Below are positions 9,559 through 35,524 of a stretch of 64,000 nucleotides of DNA, in pieces. The notes under the pieces are model-generated. The model ran no database searches. It had not been told where the DNA came from and worked only from the letters and a program-made list of their open reading frames with translations. The position numbers were made by a program, and so were the translations under genes. Source of the DNA: a virus (taxonomy: Duplodnaviria > Caudoviricetes); the IMG/VR virus record IMGVR_UViG_3300011116_001007. The stretch is one strand, 5' to 3'. Position 1 is the stretch's first letter. Every line of letters starts with the position of its first letter.

Positions 9559-9563
9559 CCAGT

Positions 9564-16679: not shown

Positions 16680-17263
16680 ACAAAGGTCTTGCGCTAGGAT
16701 GTAGCCATACCGCCGGTGTAGGAATCAACTACTCTGATTGTTATGTAACTTTTTTAAGTCAGCACTATCAGACTACTATTAAAAATTTAGCAGTGCCTGG
16801 CGGCAGTCATGAACAAGTTGAAAGCAATCTAATAAATGAGATCAAAAATGATTGCCCAGATTTTGTAATAGTACAATGGCCAAATCCATTCCGGCGTACA
16901 ATTTGGAATGGCGAACGCTCAAATTTAGAAAATATAACAAATGCAAGTTCGGTGTTTAAGCAATTACTAAAGCTAGGGGAAAAAAATTTTTATACCCCGT
17001 GGATACAAAGCATTGTTACCTGTAACACTGTTTGCACTGTGGCCAAAGTACCAATTGTAAATATCATGTTAGAAAATCTTGAAGAACAATATTATTTAAA
17101 ATTAAAAAAAGAAGGTATTGTTTTACATGTGGATGAAAAACTTCCTGGAAAAACTTGGTTGTTTGATAGTGCTGCCAATGACAATATGCATCATAGTGCC
17201 CGGTGCCATAGAGCATGGGCCGATAGACTTGTAGGATTAATAGATGAAAATACCGCACGATAA
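16676..17263 (+). CDS. SGNH-like protein
   Basis: LGCSHT, NLAVPGGS, C-terminal DNMH. Confidence 0.5.
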   Translation: MNKGLALGCSHTAGVGINYSDCYVTFLSQHYQTTIKNLAVPGGSHEQVESNLINEIKNDCPDFVIVQWPNPFRRTIWNGERSNLENITNASSVFKQLLKLGEKNFYTPWIQSIVTCNTVCTVAKVPIVNIMLENLEEQYYLKLKKEGIVLHVDEKLPGKTWLFDSAANDNMHHSARCHRAWADRLVGLIDENTAR

Positions 17264-18455: not shown

Positions 18456-19459
18456 CTGTTGTATTAATGTTTCCGGCCAGTCTGACGCCCTGGCACACTC
18501 AATGCATGCTGCAAGGATGTCCATTTGAGATTTTTGATCCAGATATCGAGTACCCAACCTCAACTGTATTTTTATACAACATGTATGGTCCTTACCAGGA
18601 ATATATCAAGCAACATCTTGATCAAGGGTACCGAGTCATATATGATGCCAAAAATGAACACTATGTGAATCCTGACAAACATTGGGTGCTGGACGAATTT
18701 GTGGCACATCCAGGTCAAGGAATGTTTTTGATATCCGGACATGAGCCACAAACAATTGCTGGAGTAACAATAGCAGCCACACCTTATTGGTATTGGATAA
18801 TTGACCAGACAGAGTTTAAAAAATTTGGATACGACCAGTATCGGTGGAACCCCACATACAAATTTGATTTTTTCATGCAGATAAGCCTGCCTAGAGTCGA
18901 CAGAGACGTGCTGTATGATATAATGGCGCCTGTGTTGCATCGCGGATTACACAGTTATCGCAGTCGTGGAATATTTTTGCCCAATGATGTTGACACAACA
19001 GCAGTACCGGATTGGCAACGATATACTAATTTTGATTGGATTGATCAATGCAATCTCACCGTGATAGTGGAAACTAACATCGACGACGCTACCATAACTG
19101 GAACCAGTATAACAAAAAATGATCAGTGGTTCTTGTGCGAAAAAACTTATAAACCTATTGCGTATGGCCATCCTTTTTTACAAGCAGGCACCTGCGGCAA
19201 TTTAAATTATGTACGGCAGCAAGGATTTGAAACTTTTCCCGAACTATGGGATGAAAGCTATAGCAATTTGCCACACTACACTGATCGCGTCCGTGCTATA
19301 ATGAGTATCATCCAATCATTTGACCCTGCTGCATTGTCAATGCCCATTGTTCGAGAAAAATTAAAATACAATCAAGCAAGATTTTTTGACAAAGAGTTAA
19401 CCGCAAAATTCCTAGCAGAAACCATCACAAATCCTATTATTGAGTTTGCCAATGACTAA
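18452..19459 (+). CDS. GT10-like TEK-motif protein (4 of 6)
   Basis: VIVET...FLCEKTYKPIAYGHPF...GFETF.ELWDESY. Confidence 0.5.
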   Translation: MTVVLMFPASLTPWHTQCMLQGCPFEIFDPDIEYPTSTVFLYNMYGPYQEYIKQHLDQGYRVIYDAKNEHYVNPDKHWVLDEFVAHPGQGMFLISGHEPQTIAGVTIAATPYWYWIIDQTEFKKFGYDQYRWNPTYKFDFFMQISLPRVDRDVLYDIMAPVLHRGLHSYRSRGIFLPNDVDTTAVPDWQRYTNFDWIDQCNLTVIVETNIDDATITGTSITKNDQWFLCEKTYKPIAYGHPFLQAGTCGNLNYVRQQGFETFPELWDESYSNLPHYTDRVRAIMSIIQSFDPAALSMPIVREKLKYNQARFFDKELTAKFLAETITNPIIEFAND

Positions 19460-20741
19460 ACCAGACACATTGTGCATGGCACCTTGGGTGCATACCTATC
19501 TCTCTCCGCAGACCGAGCGTCGCATGTGCTGTGCATCTAGAGAACCTGCACAAAATTTTGAACAATACATTGATACTGCATCAGGCACAGGTACTTACAT
19601 ACCAATCACCCTAGAACAGCATTGGAACAGTGATCACATGCGATCAGTCCGTCGCCGCATGATGGCTGGAGAACGCCTGTCTGAATGTGAAGTTTGCAAT
19701 GATCAGCTACTGAACACTGATGTTTACCGCACATATTTTTGGCAACTTTTTAAACATAAATATTCAGACGCAATGGCAGCTACCGGTAAAGATGGATTTT
19801 ATGAACCGTTGCCAGTGAGTTGGGATTATAGATTTAGTAACTTTTGTAATTTTAAATGTAGAACTTGCGGAGACATGTTGAGCAGTGCTTGGGAGTCAGA
19901 ACAAAAGACACACCGCATGGTCGACTGGAGCAATTCCAAAAACAACTGGATGCGTCCCGAAGTGCGAAAAAAGATCACTCAGTTCCAAGACAGTCAAATT
20001 GAGCAAGAGTTTAGCGATGCCGTAGAACAGCACAGAGTAGAAGAAGTATACTGGGTAGGCGGCGAACCCTTGATGTACGAACAGCACTGGCAGTACATGC
20101 AGCGCATAATAGAATTAGGGGACGGACCAAGAGTATATGCTAGATACAATACAAACTTATCAAGAGTGGATTATCGCGGGATCAACTTGTATCGCGATAT
20201 TTTGTCTGGGCTTAGGGATTGGCAGATATGTGCAAGTCTCGACGGCACAGGCCCAATTGGAGAATACATTAGAACAGGCCTTGACTATGATCAATGGCTT
20301 GAAAACTTCCGTGGAGCAATTGCAATCCAACGTCACCCACGTCAAGTCAGAATTGACTTTACGCTCACTCTGCCCGGAATGTTTGAAGTTGGCCCGATTA
20401 CAGAACTCGCTGGACAACTTGGCGTCGATGTCTTGGCCAAAGTGATCTTCTCATTCAGCCCTGACATTGTAATGAGCCCGTTGGCACTGCCTAGGCATTT
20501 GTTGCATCCGTGGTTGGATGAATTGATTGCCAAAACATCAGGTGCCATGCAGGCGGTATTGATGCAGTTAAAAAATCGACCCACTTTTGAAGAACAATGG
20601 CCGGATACCTATCAACAAAGTCTTGCCCAAGGTCGTGCTCGTGTGTTACAATTGGAACAGATAAGAACACAATCTGTAACAATGACTGATATCCTATCAG
20701 CCAGACCTGCGGTATTAAAATGGTGGATGAACATTGCTTAA
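19452..20741 (+). CDS. Radical SAM protein (5 of 5)
   Basis: CNFKCRTC, VGGEP, CMAPW...MCC...CEVC. Confidence 0.9.
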   Translation: MTKPDTLCMAPWVHTYLSPQTERRMCCASREPAQNFEQYIDTASGTGTYIPITLEQHWNSDHMRSVRRRMMAGERLSECEVCNDQLLNTDVYRTYFWQLFKHKYSDAMAATGKDGFYEPLPVSWDYRFSNFCNFKCRTCGDMLSSAWESEQKTHRMVDWSNSKNNWMRPEVRKKITQFQDSQIEQEFSDAVEQHRVEEVYWVGGEPLMYEQHWQYMQRIIELGDGPRVYARYNTNLSRVDYRGINLYRDILSGLRDWQICASLDGTGPIGEYIRTGLDYDQWLENFRGAIAIQRHPRQVRIDFTLTLPGMFEVGPITELAGQLGVDVLAKVIFSFSPDIVMSPLALPRHLLHPWLDELIAKTSGAMQAVLMQLKNRPTFEEQWPDTYQQSLAQGRARVLQLEQIRTQSVTMTDILSARPAVLKWWMNIA

Positions 20742-21771
20742 TTCAATTGAACTAGATTTACGAAGTGCAGACAACAAACTGCTGACTGTGTACGTTGATG
20801 TGTACGACAATAGCCTTGCACATAAATGGCTTGCAGCATTGACTCATCTGATTGATAACGAATATCATTTGGAAAAAAATTATTGTTGGCTAGGCTGGGT
20901 TGAAAGTGCTCGCTCCGTGGAATATATTTGTACTCAAATCAATTGCAGCATACATGCAATCAACGCAGCAGGACTGGGTTATGTAATACAAGATTTTTTT
21001 ACACCATCCAATACCACTACAGACGATGGAAAAATTGATCATGCACACATGAATCAATTACATAGTTATTTTGAAGATCTGCAAGGAGTGTCTGGAGCAA
21101 TGAGTCCATATTACAACATTGCTGACAATACCACAAGATGGCACATACGTCAATTGAACTTGCTGTGTCATGAACTAGAAAGTCTGGTGTTGAGTATTCG
21201 TAAATTAAAAACGGCACCCGAATGGCGCCGACCATCACAGTTGATGTGTTGGTTACAATCTCCAAGATTCTTGCTAGAACCAGAAGACTATGAACTGTTT
21301 GGTATTGACACAATCAATCGAGAATTAGGCGGTGTATATGTAGGAGTAAATAAAGCAGTAGGAAAACATCACTGGGAAGTTTTCAATGATGAAGGACGAG
21401 ACAGTCGAGTTGGCGAACTTGCTACCAGCACACTCAGATCTCAAACTGAAGCAGCTGGCGATTTTGATATTGAGTGGGCAAATAATCCTGGCGCCTTTCC
21501 GTGGCAAATCAAAATGCTTGGAGAATTCCGCACCTGGTTGATAAAAAATGGATTTGATCCTGATGATAAAACGTTGACCATTGGACATCCTAAAATCGCA
21601 CAAGTAGATTTGGTTCGCAGTTTTGGTACCACAGATTACAGTAAAATTTGGGAAAAAATATCAGCACATCTAGATGTGTATAAAATACGAACTGGAACAG
21701 TCGAAGCTACATACGACTATCGCTGGAGCGATGAGGACTATGATCAACAACAAATAAAGGAATTGTCATGA
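20734..21771 (+). CDS. Hypothetical protein (345 aa)
   Basis: Long ORF overlapping both neighbours; no motif recognised. Confidence 0.7.
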   Translation: MLNSIELDLRSADNKLLTVYVDVYDNSLAHKWLAALTHLIDNEYHLEKNYCWLGWVESARSVEYICTQINCSIHAINAAGLGYVIQDFFTPSNTTTDDGKIDHAHMNQLHSYFEDLQGVSGAMSPYYNIADNTTRWHIRQLNLLCHELESLVLSIRKLKTAPEWRRPSQLMCWLQSPRFLLEPEDYELFGIDTINRELGGVYVGVNKAVGKHHWEVFNDEGRDSRVGELATSTLRSQTEAAGDFDIEWANNPGAFPWQIKMLGEFRTWLIKNGFDPDDKTLTIGHPKIAQVDLVRSFGTTDYSKIWEKISAHLDVYKIRTGTVEATYDYRWSDEDYDQQQIKELS

Positions 21772-21869
21772 ACTGGATTAAAAATTTATGGAACAGAATC
21801 ACATTAGAAATTCGCTATCGTAAAAAACTACGAGAACTTCGCAAGCGCGACCCATTCATCTACAAATGA
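21768..21869 (+). CDS. 33-aa basic peptide MNWIKNLWNRITLEIRYRKKLRELRKRDPFIYK, not in ORF track
   Basis: ATGA overlaps at both ends (21768-21771 and 21866-21869). Confidence 0.65.
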   Translation: MNWIKNLWNRITLEIRYRKKLRELRKRDPFIYK

Positions 21870-23344
21870 ACTATTTGGGAATATCTGCTGGGTTTCACGA
21901 TGCAGCCGTCAGCGTGATCAGTCATGACGGCAACATCTTGTTTGCTGCTCACAGTGAACGATATAGCAAAAACAAGCATGATAAAAATCTCTGTAAAAAT
22001 TTATTGTTGGATGCAATGGATTACACAGACCCTAGCCAGATTGAGTATCACTATTACGAACGTCCCTGGGTCAAGGCCATGCGACAATTACGCAGTGGCG
22101 AAGGTTTTAAATGGCCCACCTGGAATAGATTGCTAGGAAATTCTTACAATTTCTTAGACCAACCTCAAATACACACTCATGCTCATCACTTGTGTCATGC
22201 AGCCGCAGGGTTTCAGACCAGTCCCTTCGAAGATGCCACTGTAGTGGTGATTGATGCCATTGGAGAGTTTGATACTATCACTATCTGGGACGCTTGGTAT
22301 GATTTCTCAACAGGTAAAGCTGAATACAAAAAGTTGTGGAGCATGAAGTATCCAAACAGCATTGGTTTATTCTATTCGGCAATGACCAAAAGAGTTGGGC
22401 TACGACCGCTTGATGAAGAATACATTCTAATGGGCATGGCAGCGTATGGAAAACCCATACATCTAAAGGATATGATAAATCAGTTGGTGGACAGCAAAGA
22501 TATATTCACTTTCAAGCAGAATCTACACATAGGTGTTGATGAAGATTTCTTAAAAGATGCTGACAATTACAACATCGCTAGTACGTCTCAAGAGTTGGTA
22601 GAACACATGATCTCTAGAGTAATGAGCAAAGCTAGAATGATAGGTTCTAGTAAAAATCTAGTATACGGTGGTGGAGTAGCGTTGAATTGTTTAGCAAACA
22701 GATTATTGGGGAACTTTTATGAAAAAATTTGGATCATGCCCAACCCCGGCGACGCCGGCAACAGCCTTGGCGCAGCGTGTCTGGGGTACGGTGCAAAAGT
22801 CAATTGGCGTGACTGTTTCTTGGGTCATAATATTCCTGGTGATTATCCTGTTAATTCCATTCTTGATGTATTACTCACTGACAAAATTGTTGGTGTGGCT
22901 AGTGGCCGAGCGGAGTTTGGGCCCAGGGCACTAGGCAATCGCAGCTTGTTGGCAGACCCAAGAGGCAACAAAATAAAGGATCAGGTGAATGAAATCAAAC
23001 GCAGACAAAAATTCAGACCCTTTGCTCCGGTTATTCTTGAGGAGTATGTTGATCAATATTTTGATATGCCTCGTCATTGGCACAACAGTAGGTATATGCA
23101 AGTGGTCGGTACTTGCAGGAATCCTGAGTTGTTTCCTGCTATTGTTCATCACGACGGCACTAGTCGTATACAAACTGTACCCAACGATGGAAGCGGAATT
23201 CGACAACTATTGGAAAAGTGGCATTTTATGACCGGCTGCCCGATGCTATTAAATACCAGTCTAAACATACGCAATGAGCCCATGGTCAATGACCGTACAG
23301 ATGCTGATAGATTTGAAAAATTATACAAAATAAAAGTGTGCTAA
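21866..23344 (+). CDS. Carbamoyltransferase, NodU/CmcH/TobZ family
   Basis: GISAGFHDAA, ERYSKNKH, HHLCHA, DAIGE, GGVALN, EFGPRALGNRS, LLNTSLN. Confidence 0.92.
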   Translation: MNYLGISAGFHDAAVSVISHDGNILFAAHSERYSKNKHDKNLCKNLLLDAMDYTDPSQIEYHYYERPWVKAMRQLRSGEGFKWPTWNRLLGNSYNFLDQPQIHTHAHHLCHAAAGFQTSPFEDATVVVIDAIGEFDTITIWDAWYDFSTGKAEYKKLWSMKYPNSIGLFYSAMTKRVGLRPLDEEYILMGMAAYGKPIHLKDMINQLVDSKDIFTFKQNLHIGVDEDFLKDADNYNIASTSQELVEHMISRVMSKARMIGSSKNLVYGGGVALNCLANRLLGNFYEKIWIMPNPGDAGNSLGAACLGYGAKVNWRDCFLGHNIPGDYPVNSILDVLLTDKIVGVASGRAEFGPRALGNRSLLADPRGNKIKDQVNEIKRRQKFRPFAPVILEEYVDQYFDMPRHWHNSRYMQVVGTCRNPELFPAIVHHDGTSRIQTVPNDGSGIRQLLEKWHFMTGCPMLLNTSLNIRNEPMVNDRTDADRFEKLYKIKVC

Positions 23345-24022
23345 ATGAATCATAAAAAATTTAAACTCTACGAGAAAAAAGCCTTGAAGACTGTGTACTC
23401 TGAACAAGGCGGCAGTTTTCACAATGTGGTAATTGAAACCCATGCAAAAAGTTTCTTACCAAAATTAAATGTCAACCCAGATTCACTGATTGTGGACATT
23501 GGCTGCGGCCCCGGCGAGTTCATGCAAACGGCTCGGGATCAAGGTTACAACAATCTACTTGGTGTAACCCTCAGCAAAGAAGATATCAAAGTTTGTAATA
23601 AACTAGGATTTAAAACATTGAACTCGGACATGAGTGACCTTGCACTGGATGACAACAGCGTTGATCTCATCTGGTGTAGACATGCAATAGAACACAGCCC
23701 TTATCCGTTGTTTACACTGTACGAATTTCATAGAGTGCTCAAAGATCAGGCCATGGCGTTTATTGAAGTACCTGCACCAGACAATGATCGTGTGTTCATA
23801 CATGAAAACAACCCCAATCACTACAGCATCCTGGGCGAAAGAATGTGGCAAGGATTGTTTTACAAATCAGGATTTGACGTTGTGAGTTTTCATCACTACA
23901 ACATGACCACTGAAGTCATTGTTGTTCCTGAACGGTCTTATTTGTTTGTGATTAAAAAATCAACTGAAAGTCTAGCAGAAAAATTCTTACGAGATTTTGA
24001 ACTCAAAATCTCAGACGATTGA
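23345..24022 (+). CDS. Class I SAM-dependent methyltransferase
   Basis: VDIGCGPG motif I, SVDLIWCRHAIEHSP. Confidence 0.85.
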   Translation: MNHKKFKLYEKKALKTVYSEQGGSFHNVVIETHAKSFLPKLNVNPDSLIVDIGCGPGEFMQTARDQGYNNLLGVTLSKEDIKVCNKLGFKTLNSDMSDLALDDNSVDLIWCRHAIEHSPYPLFTLYEFHRVLKDQAMAFIEVPAPDNDRVFIHENNPNHYSILGERMWQGLFYKSGFDVVSFHHYNMTTEVIVVPERSYLFVIKKSTESLAEKFLRDFELKISDD

Positions 24023-24696
24023 CTTGGATGATTCATAACACCAAAAAGTTTTGGAATGACGAAAAATTGTGTCGTCCCTTTGCTTATTCAAACACAATCA
24101 CTCATAATTACAGTCAAAGCGATCAAGATATCTGGGTGTTGAGCATGCTGGACGGGCTACACGACGGTACCTATCTTGACATAGGAGCTGGCTGGCCCGA
24201 GCACATAAGCAACACAGCATTATTAGAACTACAATTTGGCTGGCGCGGTGTCAGTTTAGATTACCAAGATATGTATCCAGACATGTGGGCAGCAGCCGGA
24301 CGAAAATCATTTGTTAAAGGAGATGGGCGGACTGTAGATTTTGATCAGTTGTTATCAGACATGCCACTAGTGATTGATTATCTTTCCATTGATTGTGATC
24401 CAGGTCGGACCACATTTGAAATTTTGCAACGTATGCCTTGGGACCGATATAAATTTCGTTTGATCACATTTGAACACGAATGCTATGCAGAAGGGCCAGA
24501 AATCAAACATGCAAGTAGAAATTTTTTATGGTCACAAGGGTACCAGTTGGTAGTAAACAACATAAGTGAGAACGGCATTGCAATCGATTATGAAGATTGG
24601 TGGGCACACCCTGATCTAATAGATACCGATCGTCAGAGACTGCATGAATTAGTGGATGAATCAGTCAAAGACTATCGGCATTATCTTTACAAGTAA
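24019..24696 (+). CDS. FkbM-like methyltransferase
   Basis: SQSDQD, YLDIGA, SNT, IDYLSIDCD, ITFEH. Confidence 0.7.
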   Translation: MTWMIHNTKKFWNDEKLCRPFAYSNTITHNYSQSDQDIWVLSMLDGLHDGTYLDIGAGWPEHISNTALLELQFGWRGVSLDYQDMYPDMWAAAGRKSFVKGDGRTVDFDQLLSDMPLVIDYLSIDCDPGRTTFEILQRMPWDRYKFRLITFEHECYAEGPEIKHASRNFLWSQGYQLVVNNISENGIAIDYEDWWAHPDLIDTDRQRLHELVDESVKDYRHYLYK

Positions 24697-25724
24697 GTTT
24701 CTAATCCGCCGCGACGTCGTATATCTTGTGTACAACAACTGATGCCGCCGTCCCAGAAATAGCTATGTCGTAGCTCACTGATAATTGGTTCAATCTGGTG
24801 TTTACGGCAATAGTCAAACACTTCCTTGTTGTATGCACTAAAGATCACATGGTTCTCGTCTAGTACCAAGCAATTGACATCGAACACAGTTTCGGCCACA
24901 AAGCCAGTCCACTTGGTTAGGTAGGTGTTGACAAATTCAGTAAATTCAGCAGTAGGTGTTTGCCCTTGCACATACCATGCGCCTGGCGATTGTTCATATT
25001 TGAATTTGCCCACTTCCATAGCAGCCCAGATACTGCTGTCCCAGATCTTACACACATCCCAGCCAGGAAAGTCTGCAGCCAGATTTAAATTTACATCATG
25101 CTTGCTGCTCAACAACACTCCTGGTTTGAGAATAGCAAACACAGCATCTCCATGGCCGTCAGTGATTGCTTCATGCACTCGATACTCGGTGCCTAACACA
25201 TTGTCTATGATCCAGCGCGATTGTTCTGGTTTGAGAAAATCACTGTTGTCAAAGAACACATCACGACCCACACGCACAATACACGATGCTGATGCTTGAT
25301 TCAATATGCAGTCTGGATCCCAATGACTGCCGTGTGGATTGATCACGCTGCCCGGTTGTGCAGTTTCATACTCTTGGCATAAGCTATCTAATTCTTGCAT
25401 TGGCAGCACACGCAGCAATTGATCGCCCAGAGTGATCTGCCAATCTCTTGGAGTAAGCGGAGGCAGCGGAGCACCACCACCTTCAGTTTGATGCCATACA
25501 AAACTGTCTTTGTTGGGCAGGTCGGGCCGCCGCACACAAGCACCAAATTGTTCTATGGTCTTGGAGAGGTTGGCCAAATCTTCTTCCGTTTCAGCTAAGA
25601 TTTGTTGTAGTTGATTTCGAACTTGTGCATTTTCGATAAAATCAAAATAGTCCGGAGTGTATGCACGGCCAACGATTACTTCTTCAAGTGGTTGCCAGCT
25701 GGTATAAGAATTAATAATGTTCAT
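24687..25724 (-). CDS. Amidinotransferase-superfamily protein (glycine/inosamine-phosphate amidinotransferase-like)
   Basis: N-terminal SWQPLEEVIVG, TPRD, DGHGD, C-terminal GGISCCTQD nucleophile motif. Confidence 0.75.
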   Translation of the reverse strand: MNIINSYTSWQPLEEVIVGRAYTPDYFDFIENAQVRNQLQQILAETEEDLANLSKTIEQFGACVRRPDLPNKDSFVWHQTEGGGAPLPPLTPRDWQITLGDQLLRVLPMQELDSLCQEYETAQPGSVINPHGSHWDPDCILNQASASCIVRVGRDVFFDNSDFLKPEQSRWIIDNVLGTEYRVHEAITDGHGDAVFAILKPGVLLSSKHDVNLNLAADFPGWDVCKIWDSSIWAAMEVGKFKYEQSPGAWYVQGQTPTAEFTEFVNTYLTKWTGFVAETVFDVNCLVLDENHVIFSAYNKEVFDYCRKHQIEPIISELRHSYFWDGGISCCTQDIRRRGGLETYL

Positions 25725-26889
25725 AAAGTTGAGTGAGTAAAGTATTTAATCTATCCGTTTTTTTGCTTAAAAATAACTGTTGATTGTGCTCAATGTCAGC
25801 TCGACATTGCTCAAACATTTGTGGTAAGTAAGGCCTTGCTTGTTGTATTGATGCCAATAATTTTTGCCATCTTGCAGTGGAATTGGTTTCCAAATCGTAT
25901 GAATTGTCTAGCACATGGTCAAATGTTTTGTAACCCAACTCTCGTAAGGTTTGCAAACTGCCTGCACATCCGGCTATGAAAAACATCTGACCATGTTTGA
26001 TTGGTTTAAAAGTTTTTTCAGTTAAAAAAACGCCACCACTTTGATCAGCATCAAAGTGTGTTTCCACTATGATATTACAATAGCTATTGGTATGATAGTT
26101 AGGCTCAGTCTGGCTGTGATCATTGCGTTGTTGATTTGTTAATGCGTCGGCAAAGTAAGGTGCCTGTTCTAAGAATTGTTCAGTGGCTGACCGTAACTCC
26201 ATTAGTAAATCAATCTCGATGGGATTATCGTTGTCAAGACTACCAGTTTCGCAATAACTCCAGAGGCTGTTGTTCAACAGTGATTGCCGATGTAAGTCAG
26301 CCATTATAGTAGCCCGCCAACTTTTATGCAATCTAGTCAACACTGTAAAATCGTATGGTCTTGGATCATGATGTACAGCCAGTGCTGCCACGTTCAAATT
26401 GCGTTGGTAATACCACAGTTCAAAATCAGTAAAATACACAAACCCAGGAAGTTTTGCAGCAGCAGTATTGGCACTGACAAAACGATAACAGTCAGCAGGC
26501 ATAAGGTGATCTTCGGCCAACTGATCTAGTCGGTGTTTTATACGTTCGGGGTTGTCACCTTCGTGATAGCAAAACAAAATTTGTAACCGATCTTCACGAA
26601 GTTTTTTACGAATTTCTGGAGTCAACAGTGAAAAATAATCAATAGCAAAATCAAAAAAACCCAGTGCTATTGGATAGTAAGCATTGTCGGGCAACGGATC
26701 ATTGATGTTATAGATGTTGATCCTGACACCATGATAATCGCAGTATTCCTGCAATCTCAAAGGAATTGTGCAAGGATAATGCGATTCAAATTCTCGCCAT
26801 TCCTGGGTGTACGGTTGTGCCTGCCATGTTGCCAATGCAGGATATATTTTACCGTTAATTGTCTGATCCGCAACTAAGTTCAATTCCAT
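25711..26889 (-). CDS. GT10-like TEK-motif protein (5 of 6)
   Basis: NIIVETH...FLTEKTFKPIKHGQMF...GYKTF...LDNSYD; start MELNLV at 26889 preferred. Confidence 0.5.
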   Translation of the reverse strand: MELNLVADQTINGKIYPALATWQAQPYTQEWREFESHYPCTIPLRLQEYCDYHGVRINIYNINDPLPDNAYYPIALGFFDFAIDYFSLLTPEIRKKLREDRLQILFCYHEGDNPERIKHRLDQLAEDHLMPADCYRFVSANTAAAKLPGFVYFTDFELWYYQRNLNVAALAVHHDPRPYDFTVLTRLHKSWRATIMADLHRQSLLNNSLWSYCETGSLDNDNPIEIDLLMELRSATEQFLEQAPYFADALTNQQRNDHSQTEPNYHTNSYCNIIVETHFDADQSGGVFLTEKTFKPIKHGQMFFIAGCAGSLQTLRELGYKTFDHVLDNSYDLETNSTARWQKLLASIQQARPYLPQMFEQCRADIEHNQQLFLSKKTDRLNTLLTQLYEHY

Positions 26890-27970
26890 CCAACATCTCC
26901 TGTAGCTCTTTCCACAACACAGCTTCAAATCCGCCATTGTAAAAATGATTCCAATTGTGTTCAATGACTTCTTGCGCCATGTCAAATAGATCTTGTTTGC
27001 CCTGTGTTGGCAATTCGTCTAGGCTGCGTAACAAGCTGGCAATGCGAGCAATACGATCTTGGTCGTCGGCTTGATCATAACTTTCGTCCCATATGTGTCC
27101 AAATGTACGGAATCCATAACTACGCAAATATTCGAGACTGCCCCGGGTGCCTACTATAACAAATGGCATGCCTAATGCAATAGGTTTGAATGTTTTTTCA
27201 GTTAGATGCCATCGTCGTCCAGTGGCAACAGTTTCGGTCACTAGATATAACAAACTTTCGGCAGACTCGTCAAACAGACTCAACCAGCAACTGTGCATGG
27301 GATGATCAGACTCGTTGGCAAAATTTATAGGCAATGATTGTGCAGAAAATACTTGTTCAATGTCTGGATACTTAGATTTCAATGGTGCTATTGCATCTAA
27401 AATGTCAATATTCTCTGCCGGACATGTTGCGGGGCAAGAAATATTGTTGTTGGTCATATTGTTTTTGAATATGTGATACAACATTTCTAACCGATGTTGT
27501 CGTTCTCCGGCTATGATACGATTGGGGGATATGAATGTTTTAGTGATCTTTCGTTGTTGAATTGGCTGAATCAAAAAAGTTTTGTTGTATCCGCGATACC
27601 AATCTAATGCAGCCCATCCATGGAAAAAATAGTAATAATTTTTCCATCCGTACCGGGCACACACTGTATCCACTGTATCACTATCACGCTCGCTGGTGCA
27701 GATGGCTCCGGCACTTGTCCACTTGTAATTAATATCGTTTGTATATTCTCTAACACGGTCGAATGTTGCGGTGTGTATGTTCAAATGAATAGGCTCTTGG
27801 TCAAAAAAGAATATATAATTGTGTTCGCGTATGTCGTTTCTGCCGTACGTGATCACACTGTCAGGATCACTTCTTCCAAATGGATCACATGCTAAAATGC
27901 GGGCGCCTGGACGATTATGTTTAATCCAAGGCCAAAAAGTATTATTATAAATCTCGTCTATTCTTATCAT
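26855..27970 (-). CDS. GT10-like TEK-motif protein (6 of 6)
   Basis: YLVTET...HLTEKTFKPIALGMPF...GFRTF..IWDESYD. Confidence 0.5.
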   Translation of the reverse strand: MIRIDEIYNNTFWPWIKHNRPGARILACDPFGRSDPDSVITYGRNDIREHNYIFFFDQEPIHLNIHTATFDRVREYTNDINYKWTSAGAICTSERDSDTVDTVCARYGWKNYYYFFHGWAALDWYRGYNKTFLIQPIQQRKITKTFISPNRIIAGERQHRLEMLYHIFKNNMTNNNISCPATCPAENIDILDAIAPLKSKYPDIEQVFSAQSLPINFANESDHPMHSCWLSLFDESAESLLYLVTETVATGRRWHLTEKTFKPIALGMPFVIVGTRGSLEYLRSYGFRTFGHIWDESYDQADDQDRIARIASLLRSLDELPTQGKQDLFDMAQEVIEHNWNHFYNGGFEAVLWKELQEMLDGIELSCGSDN

Positions 27971-30900
27971 GTTTGATGTATTTTATTCCGGAACCCGGCC
28001 CAATTTGTTTGCACACGAGCAGGCAGTGGAGTCTGTTGAGCAAGCACAGCAGATGAGCCGCACTCGTTTTTTCTGGTTTGTAAATTACTTATCTGACTAT
28101 ACTGGTTTTGATTTTCTTTGGGAACCTGTGCCTTGGCAGGCACATCAACGACATGCCTGGTTTGATCAATATCAGATTGATGCAGGTGTGTACCTTGTGC
28201 CCAAAGATGGATATACAGACACAAACTATCATGTTGATCACGTGATACACAGACTGCCCAACGTTGATTTTTGGCACATACCCAAATGGATTGATCCTGC
28301 TAGTATAAACTATAGATGGGCTCCTAATCCTACAGATCCTCCTTACATATACGAGTTTCCTGTAGAATGGGATTGGGATAGGGCAGGTGGTCCTGAATAT
28401 AGAATTCCGGGAGCAACAGAACGCAAGTACATGGATGTGTTTGTTACTCGTACACAGTCAGATCGACAAGACTGGCAAGTACACGACAATGTAGACTGCA
28501 ACGACCCGGTATTCAACTGGCATCCAAATCCATTTGATCCACCGATGATATATGTTTTTGGCAATCAACACTGGCCTGCAGAAATACGTGCCAGTGTAGA
28601 ATATCATGTGCCTGGTGCCACTGTAAAAAAATACATGGATAACATTCGAACTGTGCGATTGCCCAGCAAGGATCAGTTCACGTGTTTATATCCTTGTAAT
28701 TTTGATTGGTCGTGGGAACCAGACCCGGGCAGCCCGCCCTACATCTATGTGTTTGGCAATCAATGGTGGTCAGCTGAAAAAATGCCCACGGTAGAATATC
28801 ACATGCTTGGTGCAACAGAACGCAAGTATATGACTCAGCCTGCATGTTTATTGCCTGCATACGAAAATTGGGTCATCCCCAGCACAGTGGACTATAACAG
28901 CGTGGATTTTTCTTGGCAACCTGATCCAGGAGACACACCATACATCTATGAGTTTGCCACACAATGGCAACCCAATGGAGGTGCTGTGTATAATGTACCC
29001 GGTGCAACAGAACGCAAGTATGTGGACATACAGCACTGTAGATTGTCTGACACAATAAACTGGACAGTACCTGACTATGTCGACCCTGACAGTGTTGATT
29101 ACTCTTGGCACCCAGACAACACAGAACAACCATACATCTATGAGTTTGCCACACAATGGCAACCCAATGGAGGTGCTGTGTATAATGTACCCGGTGCAAC
29201 AGAACGCAAGTATGTGGACATACAGCACTGTAGATTGCCCAATAAATCTGCTTTTAAATTGCTGGAATACATTGACAAATTTGATTATTCGTGGCATCCG
29301 GACAACACAGAGCCAGCCTACAACTATGTGTTTGGCAATCAGCATTGGCCAGGCACAGACATGCCCACGGTCATGTATGAAATGTCTGGCAGCACTCATA
29401 AAAAATTTGTGGATAGTCCAGTTGCTCGGCTAGGCAGTTGTATGGGCAACTGGAGAATGTTTGAAGACATTGACGACGGTGTCTGGGATTGGACCTGGCA
29501 GCCAAACCCCCAGGATCCGCCTTACATTTATGCGTTTGGTAATCAATGGAATCCACCAGAGTACAAGGTCAGCATACAGTATGAAGTAGAGGGTGCTACT
29601 GAAATCAAGTACATGGATCAACGCACACGCAGACTTCCGCAGCCGCAATTATTTGGACATAATTTAGCAGTAAGTGAGTTTGATTATTCTTGGGAACCAA
29701 ATCCGTTTGATCCACCGATGATGTATGTGTTTGGCAACCAATGGAACTCGGCTGTGCTAGAACCCACAATAGTGTACAATGCTGGCGGCACTGAGATCAA
29801 GTACGTCGATGACATCATAGCCAAAGTAGCACAAGATATGAGTGCATGGGAATCATTGGATGACATTGAAGAATTTGATTACTCTTGGAGACCTGATCCT
29901 ACGGATCCTGCTTATATCTATGTGTTTGGTAATCAATGGCTTACCCCAGAACAACGCCCTGCACTAAGATACTGTGTAGCAAACGCAACAGAAATCAAAT
30001 ACATGGATCATCCGCGAGCAAAACGTCGTGGTGATCACACACGCTTTGTTCAACATTATCCTGTGGCATTTGATTGGTCGTGGGAACCCGAACCTGGTAG
30101 CCCACCTTATAATTATGTGTTTGGTAATCAGTACTACAGTGCAGAAGTCATGCCCACGGTTGAATACCGCATGAGCACAGCCACCGAACGCAAATACATG
30201 GATATCCCTGCACAGTTATTACCCAATCGTAGCGATCATTGGCACATGCTTGTTGACTGTGAATGGGACTATACTTGGAGACCTGAACCAGGAAGTCCAC
30301 CTTACATCTATGTGTTTGGCAATCAATGGTGGTCGTCTGAAAAGATGCCCACTATGGAGTATCACATGCCCGGTGCCACAGAACGCAAGTACATGTCCGC
30401 ACCTTTGGCAAACTTGTTGATTGACATGACCAATTGGCATGTGCCCGAACATGTTGATGTAACTGACATGGATTTTTCTTGGGTCCCAGACCCAGGCGAA
30501 CCTCCTTACATATACCAGTTTGCCACACAACATCAAAAGACTGGTGGACCGCAGTATCGAATGCCCAATGCAATTGAATTCAAGTATGTGGACATGATGC
30601 GAGCCGAAGTTAAAAAAGAAGCCGCACCTGTGTTTGAAATTGATCATTTAGATAACAATGCAGGCCAAATTCCCAACGTGATCAAGAAGATTCGTTATTT
30701 TGACAACTACCGTGATACCCTGATACGCTTGGCCAAAAGTCTGGTAGGTGAATACGAGCATGTGTGGGTATGTTCCAGTATTTGTGATTATACCAACTTT
30801 GACTTTTCGTGGCACCCAGAAATCTGGCAGAGCACCATGCTGCATGTGTTTGCTAGCGATGAACAGAAATTTGGTGACACGTTCTACATGCATGTGCCTA

Positions 30901-31949
30901 GCTTTGCTGAACGCGCCGAGAAGAAACAGTTATTGGAGTGGTACAGTGTAAACTACGTGTCGCGACGTCAGGTGCCACGCAGACGCATGCCTGTTATAGA
31001 ACACAATCATGACAGTCAACTTGAAGCAGTCAAGTCAATTGAATGGGCAGGCCCACTGGCATTGTTCACTACCAACGGTGAACCTATGACTATTCCAGCT
31101 GTGAATTTATGGCGCTCAGAAACCAAAACAGTAACACCACTGAGTCTGGGAGCAGGTGCAGTTGTCGTTCCAAAGTCTGCTGTACCATACATCAAAACAC
31201 AATTGTATGATTATCCATATATTGACAAAACACATCGTAACCATCAACAAGACCCACTGTCAGACGTGATTTTCATCAGTAACGGTGAAACCATGGCTGA
31301 TACAAATTGGAATCAATTACAGTCATTATGCCCAAGAGCCAAACACAGTAATGGTGTCAATGGTAGAGAAGCTGCATACAAAACAGCAGCAATGCTGAGC
31401 AACACTCCTTGGTTTTTTGCTGTGTTTGCCAAGACTGAGGTGTTACCAACATTCAAATTTGATTATCAACCCGATCGTATGCAACAACCCAAACACTATA
31501 TTTTTCACAGCAAAAATCCAGTCAACGGGTTAGAATACGGTGCTATGAATATCAACTTGTACAATCGACAGTTGGTATTAGATACTGCACCAGGCATTGA
31601 TTTTACATTGAGTGAAGCACACGAAGTAGTTCCTATCTGTGCTAGCATATCAAGATTCAATACTGATCCGTGGGTGACCTGGCGTAGTGCATTTAGAGAA
31701 GTTCTGAAACTACAACGAGAAGTTGATCTGGGTGCCGATGTAGAGATACAGTATCGCCTTAACATATGGCTTACAACAGCACAAGGTGAGAATGCCAATT
31801 GGTGTCTGCAAGGTGCTGCTGACGCACAAACTTACTACACCGCAGTCAACGGAGATTATGAAAAACTGTTATTGAGTTTTGATTGGGCTTGGTTGCAAGA
31901 CTATTACTATAGTTTGTACCACCAACGCCCTTGGTTAGAATCTGTCTAA
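27969..31949 (+). CDS. 1326-aa protein: 12 tandem ~64-68-aa Trp/Pro/Tyr-rich repeats plus a degenerate GT-A-like C-terminal domain
   Basis: Repeat consensus D(Y/W/F)SWxP(D/E/N)PxxPPYIYxF(GN/AT)QW...(V/E)Y...GATE(R/I)KY; C-terminus aligns with 6789..7712. Confidence 0.8.
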   Translation: MFDVFYSGTRPNLFAHEQAVESVEQAQQMSRTRFFWFVNYLSDYTGFDFLWEPVPWQAHQRHAWFDQYQIDAGVYLVPKDGYTDTNYHVDHVIHRLPNVDFWHIPKWIDPASINYRWAPNPTDPPYIYEFPVEWDWDRAGGPEYRIPGATERKYMDVFVTRTQSDRQDWQVHDNVDCNDPVFNWHPNPFDPPMIYVFGNQHWPAEIRASVEYHVPGATVKKYMDNIRTVRLPSKDQFTCLYPCNFDWSWEPDPGSPPYIYVFGNQWWSAEKMPTVEYHMLGATERKYMTQPACLLPAYENWVIPSTVDYNSVDFSWQPDPGDTPYIYEFATQWQPNGGAVYNVPGATERKYVDIQHCRLSDTINWTVPDYVDPDSVDYSWHPDNTEQPYIYEFATQWQPNGGAVYNVPGATERKYVDIQHCRLPNKSAFKLLEYIDKFDYSWHPDNTEPAYNYVFGNQHWPGTDMPTVMYEMSGSTHKKFVDSPVARLGSCMGNWRMFEDIDDGVWDWTWQPNPQDPPYIYAFGNQWNPPEYKVSIQYEVEGATEIKYMDQRTRRLPQPQLFGHNLAVSEFDYSWEPNPFDPPMMYVFGNQWNSAVLEPTIVYNAGGTEIKYVDDIIAKVAQDMSAWESLDDIEEFDYSWRPDPTDPAYIYVFGNQWLTPEQRPALRYCVANATEIKYMDHPRAKRRGDHTRFVQHYPVAFDWSWEPEPGSPPYNYVFGNQYYSAEVMPTVEYRMSTATERKYMDIPAQLLPNRSDHWHMLVDCEWDYTWRPEPGSPPYIYVFGNQWWSSEKMPTMEYHMPGATERKYMSAPLANLLIDMTNWHVPEHVDVTDMDFSWVPDPGEPPYIYQFATQHQKTGGPQYRMPNAIEFKYVDMMRAEVKKEAAPVFEIDHLDNNAGQIPNVIKKIRYFDNYRDTLIRLAKSLVGEYEHVWVCSSICDYTNFDFSWHPEIWQSTMLHVFASDEQKFGDTFYMHVPSFAERAEKKQLLEWYSVNYVSRRQVPRRRMPVIEHNHDSQLEAVKSIEWAGPLALFTTNGEPMTIPAVNLWRSETKTVTPLSLGAGAVVVPKSAVPYIKTQLYDYPYIDKTHRNHQQDPLSDVIFISNGETMADTNWNQLQSLCPRAKHSNGVNGREAAYKTAAMLSNTPWFFAVFAKTEVLPTFKFDYQPDRMQQPKHYIFHSKNPVNGLEYGAMNINLYNRQLVLDTAPGIDFTLSEAHEVVPICASISRFNTDPWVTWRSAFREVLKLQREVDLGADVEIQYRLNIWLTTAQGENANWCLQGAADAQTYYTAVNGDYEKLLLSFDWAWLQDYYYSLYHQRPWLESV
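28937..29237 (+). repeat. Exact 109-bp direct repeat (28937-29045 and 29129-29237), period 192 bp
   Basis: Base-by-base identity inside repeat units 4 and 5 of the large ORF. Confidence 0.9.
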
Positions 31950-32897
31950 ATAAGGTTGTGACAGCAACCAATCAAGATATTCGGGAATACCTTGTTCAAT
32001 GTCTATAGTGGGATTCCATCCAGTGAGTTCGCGTAGTTTGTTACTGTTTAATGTATCACGATTTGGATAAAAGCTATCGTGCGGCAAACAATCAATCTTG
32101 CTGGGAATACGATGTTGTATAAGTTCTGCAGCTTCTAAAATACGTCGACCATTACCTCTTGTGCAATTAAAAATTTCATTGGCACATGCAGCATGAGTTG
32201 CAGCAGTAGCAAAAGCATCAGCAACATCGGTGACCCAGGAAAAATCTAATCGATTTTCGGGACCATGCACTTGTATTTGACCTTGAGTAAGTGCAGCCAC
32301 TGCCATTTTTGATATCACCCGCACCACAGTATCTCTTGTGCCGTATAATGCACTGGGTCTTAGAATACTGTATTCTAATCCATGTTCCTTGTGCCAAATT
32401 TTACACATTTGTTCGCATTGCAGTTTATAACTGCCGTACAAGGTCAATGGATTACACACAGCAGTTTCGGTAGGAGCAGACGAACCAAATTCTCCATACA
32501 CCATGCTGCTGCTGGCCAGTACAAATCTTTTCACATGATGTTTGACACATAGATCCAATGCTATAGCCGTGGCAGTGATCATGTTTTCTGTAGCGTCAAT
32601 TACATTGCGTTTGACCATCTTGGCATTGGGATATGTTGCCAAATCAATTGCCACATCAAACGACTGTGTTTCAAACACAGACTGCATGAATTTGAGATCC
32701 GTAACATCACCAAATGCAAAATTATGAGCTGGCATATGTGTTAGACGTTGTTCAAGTATGGGATTGTATTCCCAATCAGGATAGTCTCCATAGGTATGAT
32801 GCCGGTCCACTACTGTGATGCTGTGTCCTTGGTCTGCCAGCACCTTGGCTGTGTGATGACCAATAAAACCATGACCGCCCAATATCAATATGTTCAT
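31935..32897 (-). CDS. NAD-dependent epimerase/dehydratase
   Basis: LGGHGFIG, ASSSMVYG, YGSYK. Confidence 0.88.
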   Translation of the reverse strand: MNILILGGHGFIGHHTAKVLADQGHSITVVDRHHTYGDYPDWEYNPILEQRLTHMPAHNFAFGDVTDLKFMQSVFETQSFDVAIDLATYPNAKMVKRNVIDATENMITATAIALDLCVKHHVKRFVLASSSMVYGEFGSSAPTETAVCNPLTLYGSYKLQCEQMCKIWHKEHGLEYSILRPSALYGTRDTVVRVISKMAVAALTQGQIQVHGPENRLDFSWVTDVADAFATAATHAACANEIFNCTRGNGRRILEAAELIQHRIPSKIDCLPHDSFYPNRDTLNSNKLRELTGWNPTIDIEQGIPEYLDWLLSQPYLDRF

Positions 32898-33925
32898 TGT
32901 AGTATTTTTCCTATATGTTCTACTTCTGCATCAGTCAATGTGTGTTGATTTGGCACACTAAAACTGATTTTGCTGAGACGATCACTGTTGGTTGCAACAC
33001 CCGGGTATAAGTATTCTTGGTGAATCGGTAGTTGATAATGAACAGCACATTCTATTCCTGCATTGCGTAATTCAACTACAGTTTGATCTCTTAGATCACT
33101 TTGGAATACCAGTTTACTGTAGGTGTGTTGTTGTAGATGTTGTTGCATGCCTGATTGATATTTACTACGTTCTATTAAATATTGAGCAATTTTGTTTCTA
33201 CGTGTTTGCCAGGTGTTAGAATGATCTAATCCAGACCATATGCAGGCCGCTTCAAAACTACTGATCATACTGTTAAGTCCAGGATCGATAGCATGATCTG
33301 AGTTGCGATTCTTACCATGTAATCGCAACAGTCTGCATGATTCAGCAACAGCATCACTGTCAGTGAGCACAGCACCTCCACTGCCCCAGCTGCTGATAGG
33401 TTTGCTTGGAGCAAAACTTACACAGCCAACTACCCCATTTTTGGCACTCCAGCAGGTACCGTTGTGACTTTCTAGACTTTGTGCAGCATCGCTGATCAAT
33501 GGAATTTTCAATTGATTTAACGACTCCCAATGACTCATGTTACCAAATATATCAACAGCCACCACAGCAGCACAATCAGAAATTTTGCCAACGTCAATAC
33601 AATAGTCATTGCCAACATCTATAGGTACAACTTGATGTCCGGCACGTGCCACTGCATGTGCAGTAGCAGTAAATGTATAACTGCTCACTGCCACACGAGA
33701 CTGCGGAGGAAGATTCAATGACTTAACAGCTAAAAATAATGCATCAGTGCAACTGGCAGTGGTCACACAATGTTTACGTCCATACTGTTGAGCCAGTCTC
33801 TGTTCTAATTTTTTTATCAACTGACTATTCTGAGCCAGTCCTTGTGCATGATCTTGTTCAACCAGGTGCCATACCTGTTCGCGTATGGTTCTCCAGTTTA
33901 AACTATTTTGAAATAAAGATATCAT
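32894..33925 (-). CDS. DegT/DnrJ/EryC1/StrS PLP-dependent sugar aminotransferase
   Basis: TASCTDAL, TFTATA, DAAQS, SFAPSKP (Schiff-base Lys), GGAV. Confidence 0.88.
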   Translation of the reverse strand: MISLFQNSLNWRTIREQVWHLVEQDHAQGLAQNSQLIKKLEQRLAQQYGRKHCVTTASCTDALFLAVKSLNLPPQSRVAVSSYTFTATAHAVARAGHQVVPIDVGNDYCIDVGKISDCAAVVAVDIFGNMSHWESLNQLKIPLISDAAQSLESHNGTCWSAKNGVVGCVSFAPSKPISSWGSGGAVLTDSDAVAESCRLLRLHGKNRNSDHAIDPGLNSMISSFEAACIWSGLDHSNTWQTRRNKIAQYLIERSKYQSGMQQHLQQHTYSKLVFQSDLRDQTVVELRNAGIECAVHYQLPIHQEYLYPGVATNSDRLSKISFSVPNQHTLTDAEVEHIGKILQ

Positions 33926-33926
33926 A

Positions 33927-34547
33927 CTAAAAATAATTGTTTACCACAGTAAATGCTTCGGCTAACACTTGCTGATTACGCTGGGCCCAATATTGGTTGG
34001 TCACACGTACATGTTCTATATCTTCAAGACCAAGATAACTGTTATAACATTTCAACAAAGTTTTTTTAAATTCCCATTGATCTGATATGTCTACAAACAA
34101 ATTTGGCTGAGTAGAATAGTGATGGCAATAGGGCCATTGATGCATAATCCAAACTTGTTTGGCCAACTTCTTTACTATGGGCCATACCAAATGATAAGTG
34201 TTAACATGGTCTTGATGGCTGTCTTCAAAATTTGGTATGATAGCAATGTCACAAGATTCCAACAACAGAGACAATCTAGACATAGTCACATTGTCTCTTA
34301 CCAAATTAGGTCGACCATTGCTGTGTAAATCAGTATCAAACACACGAAGTTCAAATTTTGAATTTTGATAACTACAATCTAACTCTGCTTGTACTACTGA
34401 TTGGTCACGCCCTGGGCGATCCTCTGAACTGGGACGCACAGTGATTACAGAGATTATCTCAGCACCTTGTTCTTGAAATTTTTTCAGTGTTCCTGAACAT
34501 GCAATTTCAACATCATCAGGATGCGGAGAAATTACCAATATTTTCAT
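33927..34547 (-). CDS. PIG-L/LmbE family N-acetyl deacetylase
   Basis: SPHPDDVE and DSHQDH metal motifs. Confidence 0.85.
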   Translation of the reverse strand: MKILVISPHPDDVEIACSGTLKKFQEQGAEIISVITVRPSSEDRPGRDQSVVQAELDCSYQNSKFELRVFDTDLHSNGRPNLVRDNVTMSRLSLLLESCDIAIIPNFEDSHQDHVNTYHLVWPIVKKLAKQVWIMHQWPYCHHYSTQPNLFVDISDQWEFKKTLLKCYNSYLGLEDIEHVRVTNQYWAQRNQQVLAEAFTVVNNYF

Positions 34548-35524
34548 CGACGATTCCAGTAAAGGCTACTTTTAAACCAGGCCAGGTAATTATCAAATCC
34601 TTCTGCTACATCAACTTTGGGATCATATCCTAACACAGCTCTAGCACGATCAATATTCAACGCACCGCGTGATGGAAAGTCTGCGTCTTTATCACGCAAT
34701 TCAATTGTGCCATTGGCTACAATTTTAACAATCATCTCAGCAGCCTGTGACAAGCTCACGCTGTGGCTTTTTGTGATGTTGAAAGTTTGATTAGCAGCAG
34801 CAGGGATTAGTGCAGCAGCCACAACACCATCGGCAGCATCATCCACATAGGTAAAGTCTAATGTTTCGTTTGCTCCGTTAACTTTAAGCACTCCGCCGCG
34901 CATTGCTGTGAGCATGAATTTTGATACGACGCGGTCTTCCACGTCCAAGGGGCCATATACAGCACTAGGCCTAAGTATAACATAATCAAAACATCCCCTA
35001 CGATTGTAGTCTTTAACAAGGTCTTCTCCTGCAAGTTTCATAATGCCATATTGTCCTTGTGGACGGCATACAGCGTCTTCGGTCACATCATTGGCAAAGT
35101 CACCATACACCATTGAGCTTGAAATGTAAACAACTCGTTTCACATGGTGTTTTTTGGCACTCTCAAGTATGTTGATCAAGCCTTCCATCATGACTCTAGC
35201 ACCCCATGCAGGGTTGGCATTTACAACTTTCTGTCGAGGAAAGCTGGCCATATGGATCACTACATCAGGCTGTTCAATTTCAAATATGTCATTGATAGTT
35301 TCTCTATCACAGATGCTTTGAGTATACATGTGCAAAGGCGACTGCTTTATTTTCTTCAGTCGCTCACCAATCAAATAATCAAGTTCACTTTGAGGAATCA
35401 TTCCATACGTGGTTTGATTATCAACAACGGATACTGTGTGTGATTGATCTTGTAGTCTTTTGACCACATTGTGCCCAATCAGTCCAAGCCCGCCTGTGAC
35501 TAGTATTTTCATTGTCTTGTCCAT
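34544..35524 (-). CDS. NAD-dependent epimerase/dehydratase
   Basis: VTGGLGLIG, SSSMVYG, YGIMK, LDFTYVDD. Confidence 0.9.
   Translation of the reverse strand: MDKTMKILVTGGLGLIGHNVVKRLQDQSHTVSVVDNQTTYGMIPQSELDYLIGERLKKIKQSPLHMYTQSICDRETINDIFEIEQPDVVIHMASFPRQKVVNANPAWGARVMMEGLINILESAKKHHVKRVVYISSSMVYGDFANDVTEDAVCRPQGQYGIMKLAGEDLVKDYNRRGCFDYVILRPSAVYGPLDVEDRVVSKFMLTAMRGGVLKVNGANETLDFTYVDDAADGVVAAALIPAAANQTFNITKSHSVSLSQAAEMIVKIVANGTIELRDKDADFPSRGALNIDRARAVLGYDPKVDVAEGFDNYLAWFKSSLYWNRR

Follow-up and report, generated by a model that had tools for sequence, protein, structure and literature searches.

A divergent, almost wholly viral amidinotransferase subfamily and its possible role in the decoration of a phage-built glycan

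The subject of this work is AT1, a gene found in a window of 64,000 nucleotides from the virus record IMGVR_UViG_3300011116_001007 (Duplodnaviria; Caudoviricetes), a 103-kb genome fragment. To judge from sequence, its protein is a member of a distinct subfamily of amidinotransferases, which is viral almost throughout. There is in our judgement nearly an even chance that AT1 amidinates an amine on a glycan which the phage itself builds: gene content, folds and conserved residues are observed, and from them we infer the reactions and their target. A narrower statement, that a virus-specific subfamily with a rewired active site guanidinylates the amino sugars of a phage glycan, is doubtful. An original prediction, made from the letters alone, had proposed a pathway of the streptomycin type which leads to an aminoglycoside-like unit, guanidinylated and carbamoylated. 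The five minus-strand genes on which it was based are all present with intact motifs: two short-chain dehydrogenases/reductases (SDRa and SDRb), PIG-L, DegT and the amidinotransferase.

AT1, its paralogue AT2 and the proteins with a TEKTFKP motif (TEKT proteins) have no match in Pfam or NCBIfam, and PHROGs only give a family of unknown function. Profile comparison places AT1 with the amidinotransferases at E 1e-32 to 1e-37, versus E 0.3 for DDAH. The AF2 model (pLDDT 90, pTM 0.91) has the pentein fold, an alpha/beta propeller with five modules (Foldseek E 5e-22). In the VIA comparison it aligns with AGAT (1jdw), StrB1 (1bwd), HsvA (5wpi) and SxtG (6u1r) at Z 30.0–30.9, with a root-mean-square deviation (rmsd) of 2.6–3.5 Å over 284–292 residues; ADI has Z 25 and DDAH Z 20–22. 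Both in sequence and in fold AT1 is nearer to the transferases than to ADI, DDAH, AgD or PAD, so that its assignment to the amidinotransferase branch stands. The original prediction had named an arginine deiminase or dimethylargininase as its refuting case; this is disfavoured by the ancestry apparent in sequence and model, ancestry being no proof of reaction.

The likeness to StrB1, the L-arginine:inosamine-phosphate amidinotransferase, is real: the two proteins align at Z 30.8 and rmsd 3.2 Å over 288 residues, they share Cys, His and the two guanidinium Asps, and AT1 also has a DegT gene nearby. However their structural identity is 24%, AT1 has a large insertion and an FWDG motif, and Asp179 of StrB1 is Ser145 in AT1. 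AGAT, HsvA and SxtG tie with StrB1 structurally, and phmmer gives E 1.5e-12 for StrB1 versus 1e-14 for AGAT. There is no preference for StrB1.

The pentein core of AT1 is formed by D94, H191, D193 and C330. All 120 close orthologues have it, as do 108 of the 115 distant members of the subfamily, which have 27–46% identity. These residues correspond to D170, H303, D305 and C407 of AGAT. The Arg which follows the PGxxxxN strand in AGAT, StrB1 and the phage StrB1-like enzyme described below is Asp210 in AT1; it is not Arg in HsvA and SxtG either. In AGAT this residue is Arg322. The four residue types of the core are common to hydrolysis and transfer (PMC6447857). The third member of the triad, D254 in AGAT, is conserved in AGAT, StrB1, CyrA/AoaA and Amt1 (PMC3684758). 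It is lost in AT1, where the Asp-His-Cys triad (D254/H303/C407 in AGAT) is thus incomplete. Other positions are near-invariant in the subfamily: E278, N284, R319 and F323-W324-D325. The subfamily-specific insertion, about 30–40 residues, lies before the last module. An equivalence of E278 with Ser355 of AGAT was suggested by an ungapped phmmer extension and was rejected, since in the hhalign alignment E278 falls within an insertion of 8 residues. In loci picked through the DegT of the window (DegT-B), AT1 is 81–89% identical, compared with 63–75% for thyX and 59–64% for the carbamoyltransferase, which indicates a strong selection on AT1.

The subfamily is large. With clustering at 50% identity, 688 clusters reach E 1e-3 and 141 reach E 1e-30; fragments are counted among them, and some of the weakest matches are probably canonical enzymes. 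The subfamily is almost wholly viral; an atlas feature search gave unnamed viral clusters only, and in 185,579 prokaryote genomes a single-protein search found one close copy of AT1. This sole match (L122) lies in a 148-kb contig with phage gene order (NZ_JBBAKG010000003.1) from a Haliscomenobacter metagenome-assembled genome; it is probably a binned phage contig and gives at most a weak hint of the host.

A second type of amidinotransferase is found in the same phages. The close relatives of the window phage are genomes of 317–364 kb from public viral metagenomes, several of them complete; from our reading of the datasets the group is freshwater, lake jumbo phages. Five near-complete relatives (G001–G005, 89–100% complete) were used for the genome-wide searches of presence and absence. 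They have two to four amidinotransferase genes each, one of which is StrB1-like (L092, L093, L095, L096, L099), about 305 amino acids (aa) long and with the triad intact; the L092 protein matches StrB1 at E 2e-61 versus E 3e-29 for AGAT. In all five genomes this gene adjoins a putative 2-oxoglutarate oxygenase (172–190 aa, identified by motif only, with no profile match), in four a nucleotide-sugar dehydrogenase, and a TEKT gene is nearby. The StrB1-like gene and the oxygenase are the same pair as ORF308/309 of cyanophage S-SCSM2R. The StrB1-like gene is not in the 103-kb fragment of the window phage. In a tree with midpoint root, from which StrB1 was left out, the StrB1-like clade and the AT1 subfamily split with support 100/100. 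The label StrB1-type, which had been given to AT1, fits the phage group and not the gene in this window, to judge by clade, triad and scores.

Further members of the subfamily have been found in other places. AT2 (L001:3699-4928, in the near-identical assembly G000, outside the window) has 409 aa and is 35–37% identical to AT1; its neighbours are a DUF6875-like gene on one side and, on the other, a 148-aa gene with DUF6614 after it. AT2 is an optional gene, missing from this site in G002, and in three loci (L127, L129, L137) another paralogue is found one gene downstream. In L090 a paralogue adjoins genes which by eye are adenylylsulfate-kinase-like and sulfotransferase-like. A half-size DegT of about 200 aa lies between folE and an SDR gene in the five near-complete relatives (L084, L144–L147); queD-type genes are near it in at least two of them, and in G002 a gene of the AT1 subfamily is inserted at this site. 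A connection with 7-deazaguanine chemistry is no more than conceivable.

We have counted the neighbours of AT1 in 80 viral loci, part of them incomplete and part near-duplicates. The two TEKT genes next to it are present in 79 and 78 loci, the carbamoyltransferase in 76 and the gene for a 1326-aa protein in 68. The same gene order is found in dozens of relatives, so that the clustering noticed in the original prediction is not due to chance. The set is not contiguous, however: a gap of 6.2 kb separates the amidinotransferase from the SDR, DegT and PIG-L genes. It holds three genes, the two TEKT genes on the minus strand and the 1326-aa gene, which is on the plus strand and interrupts the minus-strand run. 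Facing them the carbamoyltransferase is a fixed neighbour, and the first methyltransferase is present. The second one is a motif-like sequence with no match in Pfam, PHROG or NCBIfam. Both are optional, being found in 4 and 1 of the 80 loci, respectively.

The slot before the 1326-aa gene is informative in 58 loci. In 54 of them it is occupied by another DegT clade (DegT-A), which is 25–33% identical to DegT-B; two have the trio PIG-L/DegT-B/SDRa and two have no DegT. A full-length DegT is thus present in 56 of the 58 loci and in all the complete relatives checked, which supports the predicted association. A targeted search found that the trio is a stable cassette (cassette B), always in the same slot: it occurs seven times, the window counted, and SDRb accompanies it in four of these cases and is lost in the other three. 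In one locus (L148, genome G007) two full-length DegT genes of different clades share the slot, and AT1 is more diverged (65%). The interval between AT1 and the carbamoyltransferase (L003–L082) is hypervariable: FkbM-like methyltransferases (24 copies), additional radical S-adenosylmethionine (radical-SAM) genes in two clusters (18 and 14), and SGNH-like and oxygenase-like genes vary from locus to locus, the families having been assigned by eye.

The sequences of the cassette point to amino-sugar chemistry on nucleoside diphosphate (NDP) sugars, all scores being under the equivalog cut-offs. DegT-B matches PF01041 over its cut-off (E 1e-54), and D146, which binds pyridoxal phosphate (PLP), and the Schiff-base K175 are invariant in 24 homologues. 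Its closest solved relatives are 8e75, an unnamed DegT, and WbpE, the best named one (E 1e-33). WbpE is a 3-aminotransferase of NDP-hexuronates. The 2-deoxy-scyllo-inosose aminotransferases match at E 2e-12 and the scyllo-inositol transaminase 7b0d at E 8e-32. The NDP-sugar 4,6-dehydratases have a catalytic Thr/Ser-Asp-Glu motif; SDRa and SDRb read SSSMVYG, have no Asp-Glu pair and score far under the RmlB and LegB cut-offs. The top solved matches of SDRb include UDP-hexuronate and UDP-glucose 4-epimerases. In the PIG-L protein the HPDD motif and the second His metal ligand are intact. A Gfo/Idh/MocA (StrI-like) gene is found after DegT in 3 of the 80 loci, with UDP-GlcNAc 3-dehydrogenase as its best model.

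One of the two TEKT proteins, the neighbour of AT1, was folded (AF2, pLDDT 94). Nearly all of its top 50 VIA rows are GT-B enzymes, with alignments that span the full protein (best Z 12.7, rmsd 5.6 Å, 273 aligned). T4 beta-glucosyltransferase (Z 12.7) and an alpha-1,3-fucosyltransferase (Z 11.8) are tied at the top. As to the GT10 family, the 80 members have no Pfam glycosyltransferase match and the fucosyltransferase does not separate from the T4 enzyme. The carbamoyltransferase is a two-domain CmcH/NodU protein (E 1e-33 to 1e-48).

The mechanism that we propose may be described as follows. The keto-NDP-sugar that DegT would aminate, probably at C3, would come from an oxidant: an SDR or a twitch radical-SAM enzyme, or a Gfo/Idh/MocA dehydrogenase in the case of a few relatives. 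When cassette B is present, PIG-L would strip an N-acyl group and leave a free amine. Polymerisation or attachment of the sugars would fall to the GT-B enzymes, and O-carbamoyl groups would come from the carbamoyltransferase. AT1 would load the amidino group of arginine or another guanidino donor onto Cys330 as a thiouronium intermediate, with a Cys-His pair that lacks the Asp which normally orients it. The amidino group could then pass to an amine of the glycan or of its precursor and form a positively charged guanidino group. The product would be a bound glycan, on the virion or on the surface of the infected cell, and not a free aminoglycoside.

The fixed presence of the GT-B pair and of the carbamoyltransferase, with a DegT nearly always in the slot, counts for glycan amidination. 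Some link with DegT is suggested by paralogues of the subfamily inserted between SDRb and DegT (L019, L051) and between mini-DegT and SDR (L084), that is, in two settings. That the DegT of the window supplies the acceptor amine of AT1 is nevertheless rather unlikely. Several observations weigh against our proposal. On the AT1 tree the 7 rows with cassette B require 7 changes, compared with a mean of 6.7 after shuffling; no residue of AT1 is diagnostic of the cassette type, and the window AT1 is 99% identical to an AT1 which stands beside the other DegT clade. Given this independence, AT1 either makes no use of what DegT produces or receives one and the same acceptor from both cassettes. In one phage population (L046, L048) AT1 occurs and the slot lacks a DegT, though the contig is only 18% complete. 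Other members of the subfamily lie away from sugar genes (AT2, L091, L094, P0128), the contexts of the distant ones being mostly short unannotated contigs. The third triad position is Ser145 in 120 of 120 AT1 orthologues and is acidic in only 21 of the 115 distant members. Finally, the StrB1-like paralogue is the better candidate for the amidination of an amino sugar.

Other explanations have to be weighed. AT1 may be an active amidinotransferase with an acceptor different from a sugar amine. Candidates are substituents of the glycan (amino acids, polyamines or aminoalkyl groups), proteins (at a lysine or at the N-terminus) and small peptides. AT1 would then resemble HsvA, AmtA and SxtG, and the DegT cassette would make an ordinary amino or acetamido sugar. 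We consider this unlikely, even if the absence of co-variation with the cassette and the paralogues found away from sugar genes are in its favour. The replacement of Arg by Asp210 also agrees with it, as HsvA and SxtG act on non-carboxylate amines (PMC12371840); but an amino sugar is a non-carboxylate amine too, so that this change does not discriminate. AT1 always stays with the GT-B pair, and its invariant aromatics W222, W272, F323 and W324 could stack on a sugar ring. A quite improbable alternative is a hydrolase evolved from an amidinotransferase, which would act on a guanidino group, for example one that the StrB1-like paralogue has made, and leave a ureido (N-carbamoyl) or an amino group in its place. 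The triad is altered, the same four core residues serve hydrolysis and transfer (PMC6447857), and a second transferase is not needed, as all five near-complete relatives have the canonical StrB1-like enzyme. The distance in sequence and fold to the known hydrolases speaks against it, as would the insertion if it shields the intermediate from water. It is extremely unlikely that AT1 is catalytically dead and acts as a binding or virion-associated protein. The triad Asp is missing and ORF266 of S-SCSM2R, a subfamily member with 29% identity, was detected in the virion proteome (PMC12801897); however the authors of that study allow for carry-over of an abundant protein, and the four core residues persist in nearly all distant members.

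Two further explanations concern the whole group of genes. The island might hypermodify phage DNA: a base would be glycosylated by the GT-B enzymes, and decorations on this base or on its sugar would come from the carbamoyl-, amino- and amidinotransferases. T4 beta-glucosyltransferase as top structural row of the TEKT protein agrees with this possibility, as do a phage carbamoyltransferase which acts on 5-hydroxymethylcytosine (5hmC; PMC8670742), the adjacent thyX and the folE/queD-type genes of relatives, one with a subfamily paralogue among them. It is very unlikely, however: such carbamoyltransferases co-occur with hydroxymethylases of the thymidylate synthase type (PMC8670742), and the deoxycytidylate (dCMP) hydroxymethylase of this type (PF00303) was found in none of the five near-complete relatives, with a control matched in 10 of 14. 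A search for TET/JBP, an alternative source of 5hmC, gave no match in the five, but its control matched nowhere either. The island abuts tail genes, in G002 it is about 50 kb from the folE region, and six GT-B paralogues suggest an oligosaccharide. The strict form of the original prediction, in which all the named genes make a single pathway to a guanidino-carbamoyl cyclitol of the streptidine or bluensidine kind, or to a free aminoglycoside-like unit, is very unlikely indeed. All the enzyme classes lie within 14 kb, and the chemistry has a precedent in streptidine synthesis, with inositol synthase, dehydrogenase and kinase steps (PMC13707489). However inositol-1-phosphate synthase, Gfo/Idh/MocA dehydrogenase and aminoglycoside phosphotransferase (APH) kinase (PF07994, PF01408, PF01636) were found in none of the five near-complete relatives, where the positive controls matched; the host might supply these steps, and the window genome is a fragment. 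DegT is far nearer to WbpE-like NDP-sugar enzymes than to the 2-deoxy-scyllo-inosose aminotransferases, the value of 7b0d notwithstanding, and AT1 is not StrB1-like. The PIG-L/DegT/SDRa cassette and the methyltransferases are optional, and the former is swapped with no correlation with AT1; a single pathway of these particular genes is not supported.

Cyanophage S-SCSM2R is a published precedent for this gene content. A short DegT, a radical-SAM protein and an 'inosamine amidinotransferase' (ORF305/306/309) are described among glycosyltransferases in its report, from annotation alone, and labelled antibiotic genes of unclear purpose (PMC12801897). We have found that ORF266 belongs to the AT1 subfamily (E 1e-23) and that ORF309 groups with the StrB1-like clade. 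This phage is of another group, and the part of its report consulted mentions neither a carbamoyltransferase nor two amidinotransferase types nor an active-site change (PMC12801897). What the present work contributes is the distinction of two types of amidinotransferase, the change in the triad and the finding that the DegT cassette varies independently of AT1. The 3-amino-NDP-sugar pathways of WbpB/WbpE and GnnA/GnnB are also similar: DegT-B resembles WbpE, some relatives have the 3-dehydrogenase-like gene after DegT, and phage relatives encode a nucleotide-sugar dehydrogenase. They differ in that the phage scores are far under the equivalog cut-offs, most relatives are without the 3-dehydrogenase and no acetyltransferase partner was identified. 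The carbamoyltransferase has the two-domain architecture of TobZ, NodU, NovN and the phage 5hmC enzyme (PMC8670742); unlike the latter it is flanked by GT-B and radical-SAM genes.

A limited literature search found no report of a demonstrated guanidinylated and carbamoylated phage glycan. If our proposal is true, a widespread group of lake jumbo phages uses relatives of antibiotic-biosynthesis enzymes to make glycans which are both guanidinylated and carbamoylated. Together with the StrB1-like enzyme and the interchangeable cassettes, this would give them a cationic, variable surface glycan, a kind that the same search did not find reported. The subfamily comprises hundreds of 50%-identity clusters outside Pfam and NCBIfam which keep the pentein core and drop the triad Asp of the characterised amidinotransferases compared, a case for testable enzymology. 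Annotation lumps two distinct types of phage amidinotransferase, and caution is advisable with the label of antibiotic synthesis for these genes. The swap of two unrelated DegT cassettes is a natural experiment on which sugar varies.

The genes of the region are given in Table 1. They form the distal third, at one end, of an island of about 31 kb (from about 4900 to 35524) with glycosyltransferases and radical-SAM genes. Baseplate and tail genes lie directly before it and thyX directly after. The island contains in all five radical-SAM genes, six TEKT paralogues, SGNH-like genes, three SDRs and one carbamoyltransferase, and is likely to be devoted to glycan tailoring. The one radical-SAM gene tested is over the cut-off of N_Twi_rSAM (NCBIfam).

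Table 1. Genes of the island in the window, with the evidence for each assignment.
Feature	Coordinates	Strand	Evidence or remark
Rest of island: five radical-SAM genes (N-terminal twitch family), four TEKT paralogues, SGNH-like genes, third SDR	4914..21771	+	
Third SDR	9564-10577		within island
NodU/TobZ/CmcH-type O-carbamoyltransferase	21866..23344	+	
Class I SAM methyltransferase	23345..24022	+	Methyltransf_11 E 5e-17
Putative methyltransferase	24019..24696	+	SAM-motif-like sequence only; overlaps AT1 3' end by 10 nt
AT1, 345-aa pentein, amidinotransferase branch, divergent viral subfamily	24687..25724	-	sequence, profile, model
TEKTFKP-motif protein, GT-B fold	25711..26985, probable start 26889	-	AF2 model, structure search
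Second TEKTFKP paralogue, GT-B-like	26855..27970	-	
1326-aa protein, aromatic/proline-rich repeats, C-terminal domain related to window 6789-7712	27969..31949	+	
SDRa, extended SDR, cassette B	31935..32897	-	GxxGxxG, SSS, YxxxK; no dehydratase Asp-Glu pair
DegT-B, PLP aminotransferase, cassette B	32894..33925	-	DAAQ and SFxxxK intact
PIG-L/LmbE metal-dependent de-N-acylase, cassette B	33927..34547	-	HPDD and HQDH intact
SDRb, extended SDR, usual partner of the common DegT-A	34544..35524	-	

The second TEKT gene and the 1326-aa gene start head-to-head on a common CATG palindrome (window 27967-27972), a feature found in 64 of 67 loci. The trio TEKT-TEKT-AT1 has therefore no intergenic space upstream; its promoter should lie inside the 1326-aa gene, or else the trio is transcribed by read-through from upstream. 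A promoter scan gave no more matches than chance (47 versus 41.6 expected). A 33-aa open reading frame with no Pfam match (window 21768-21869) is coupled to the carbamoyltransferase and recurs, identical in position and length, in four relatives (L140–L143). Compared with the window, the assembly G000 has some 30 substitutions spread over the first 38 kb, and small frame shifts are found near 38.8 and 46.8 kb.

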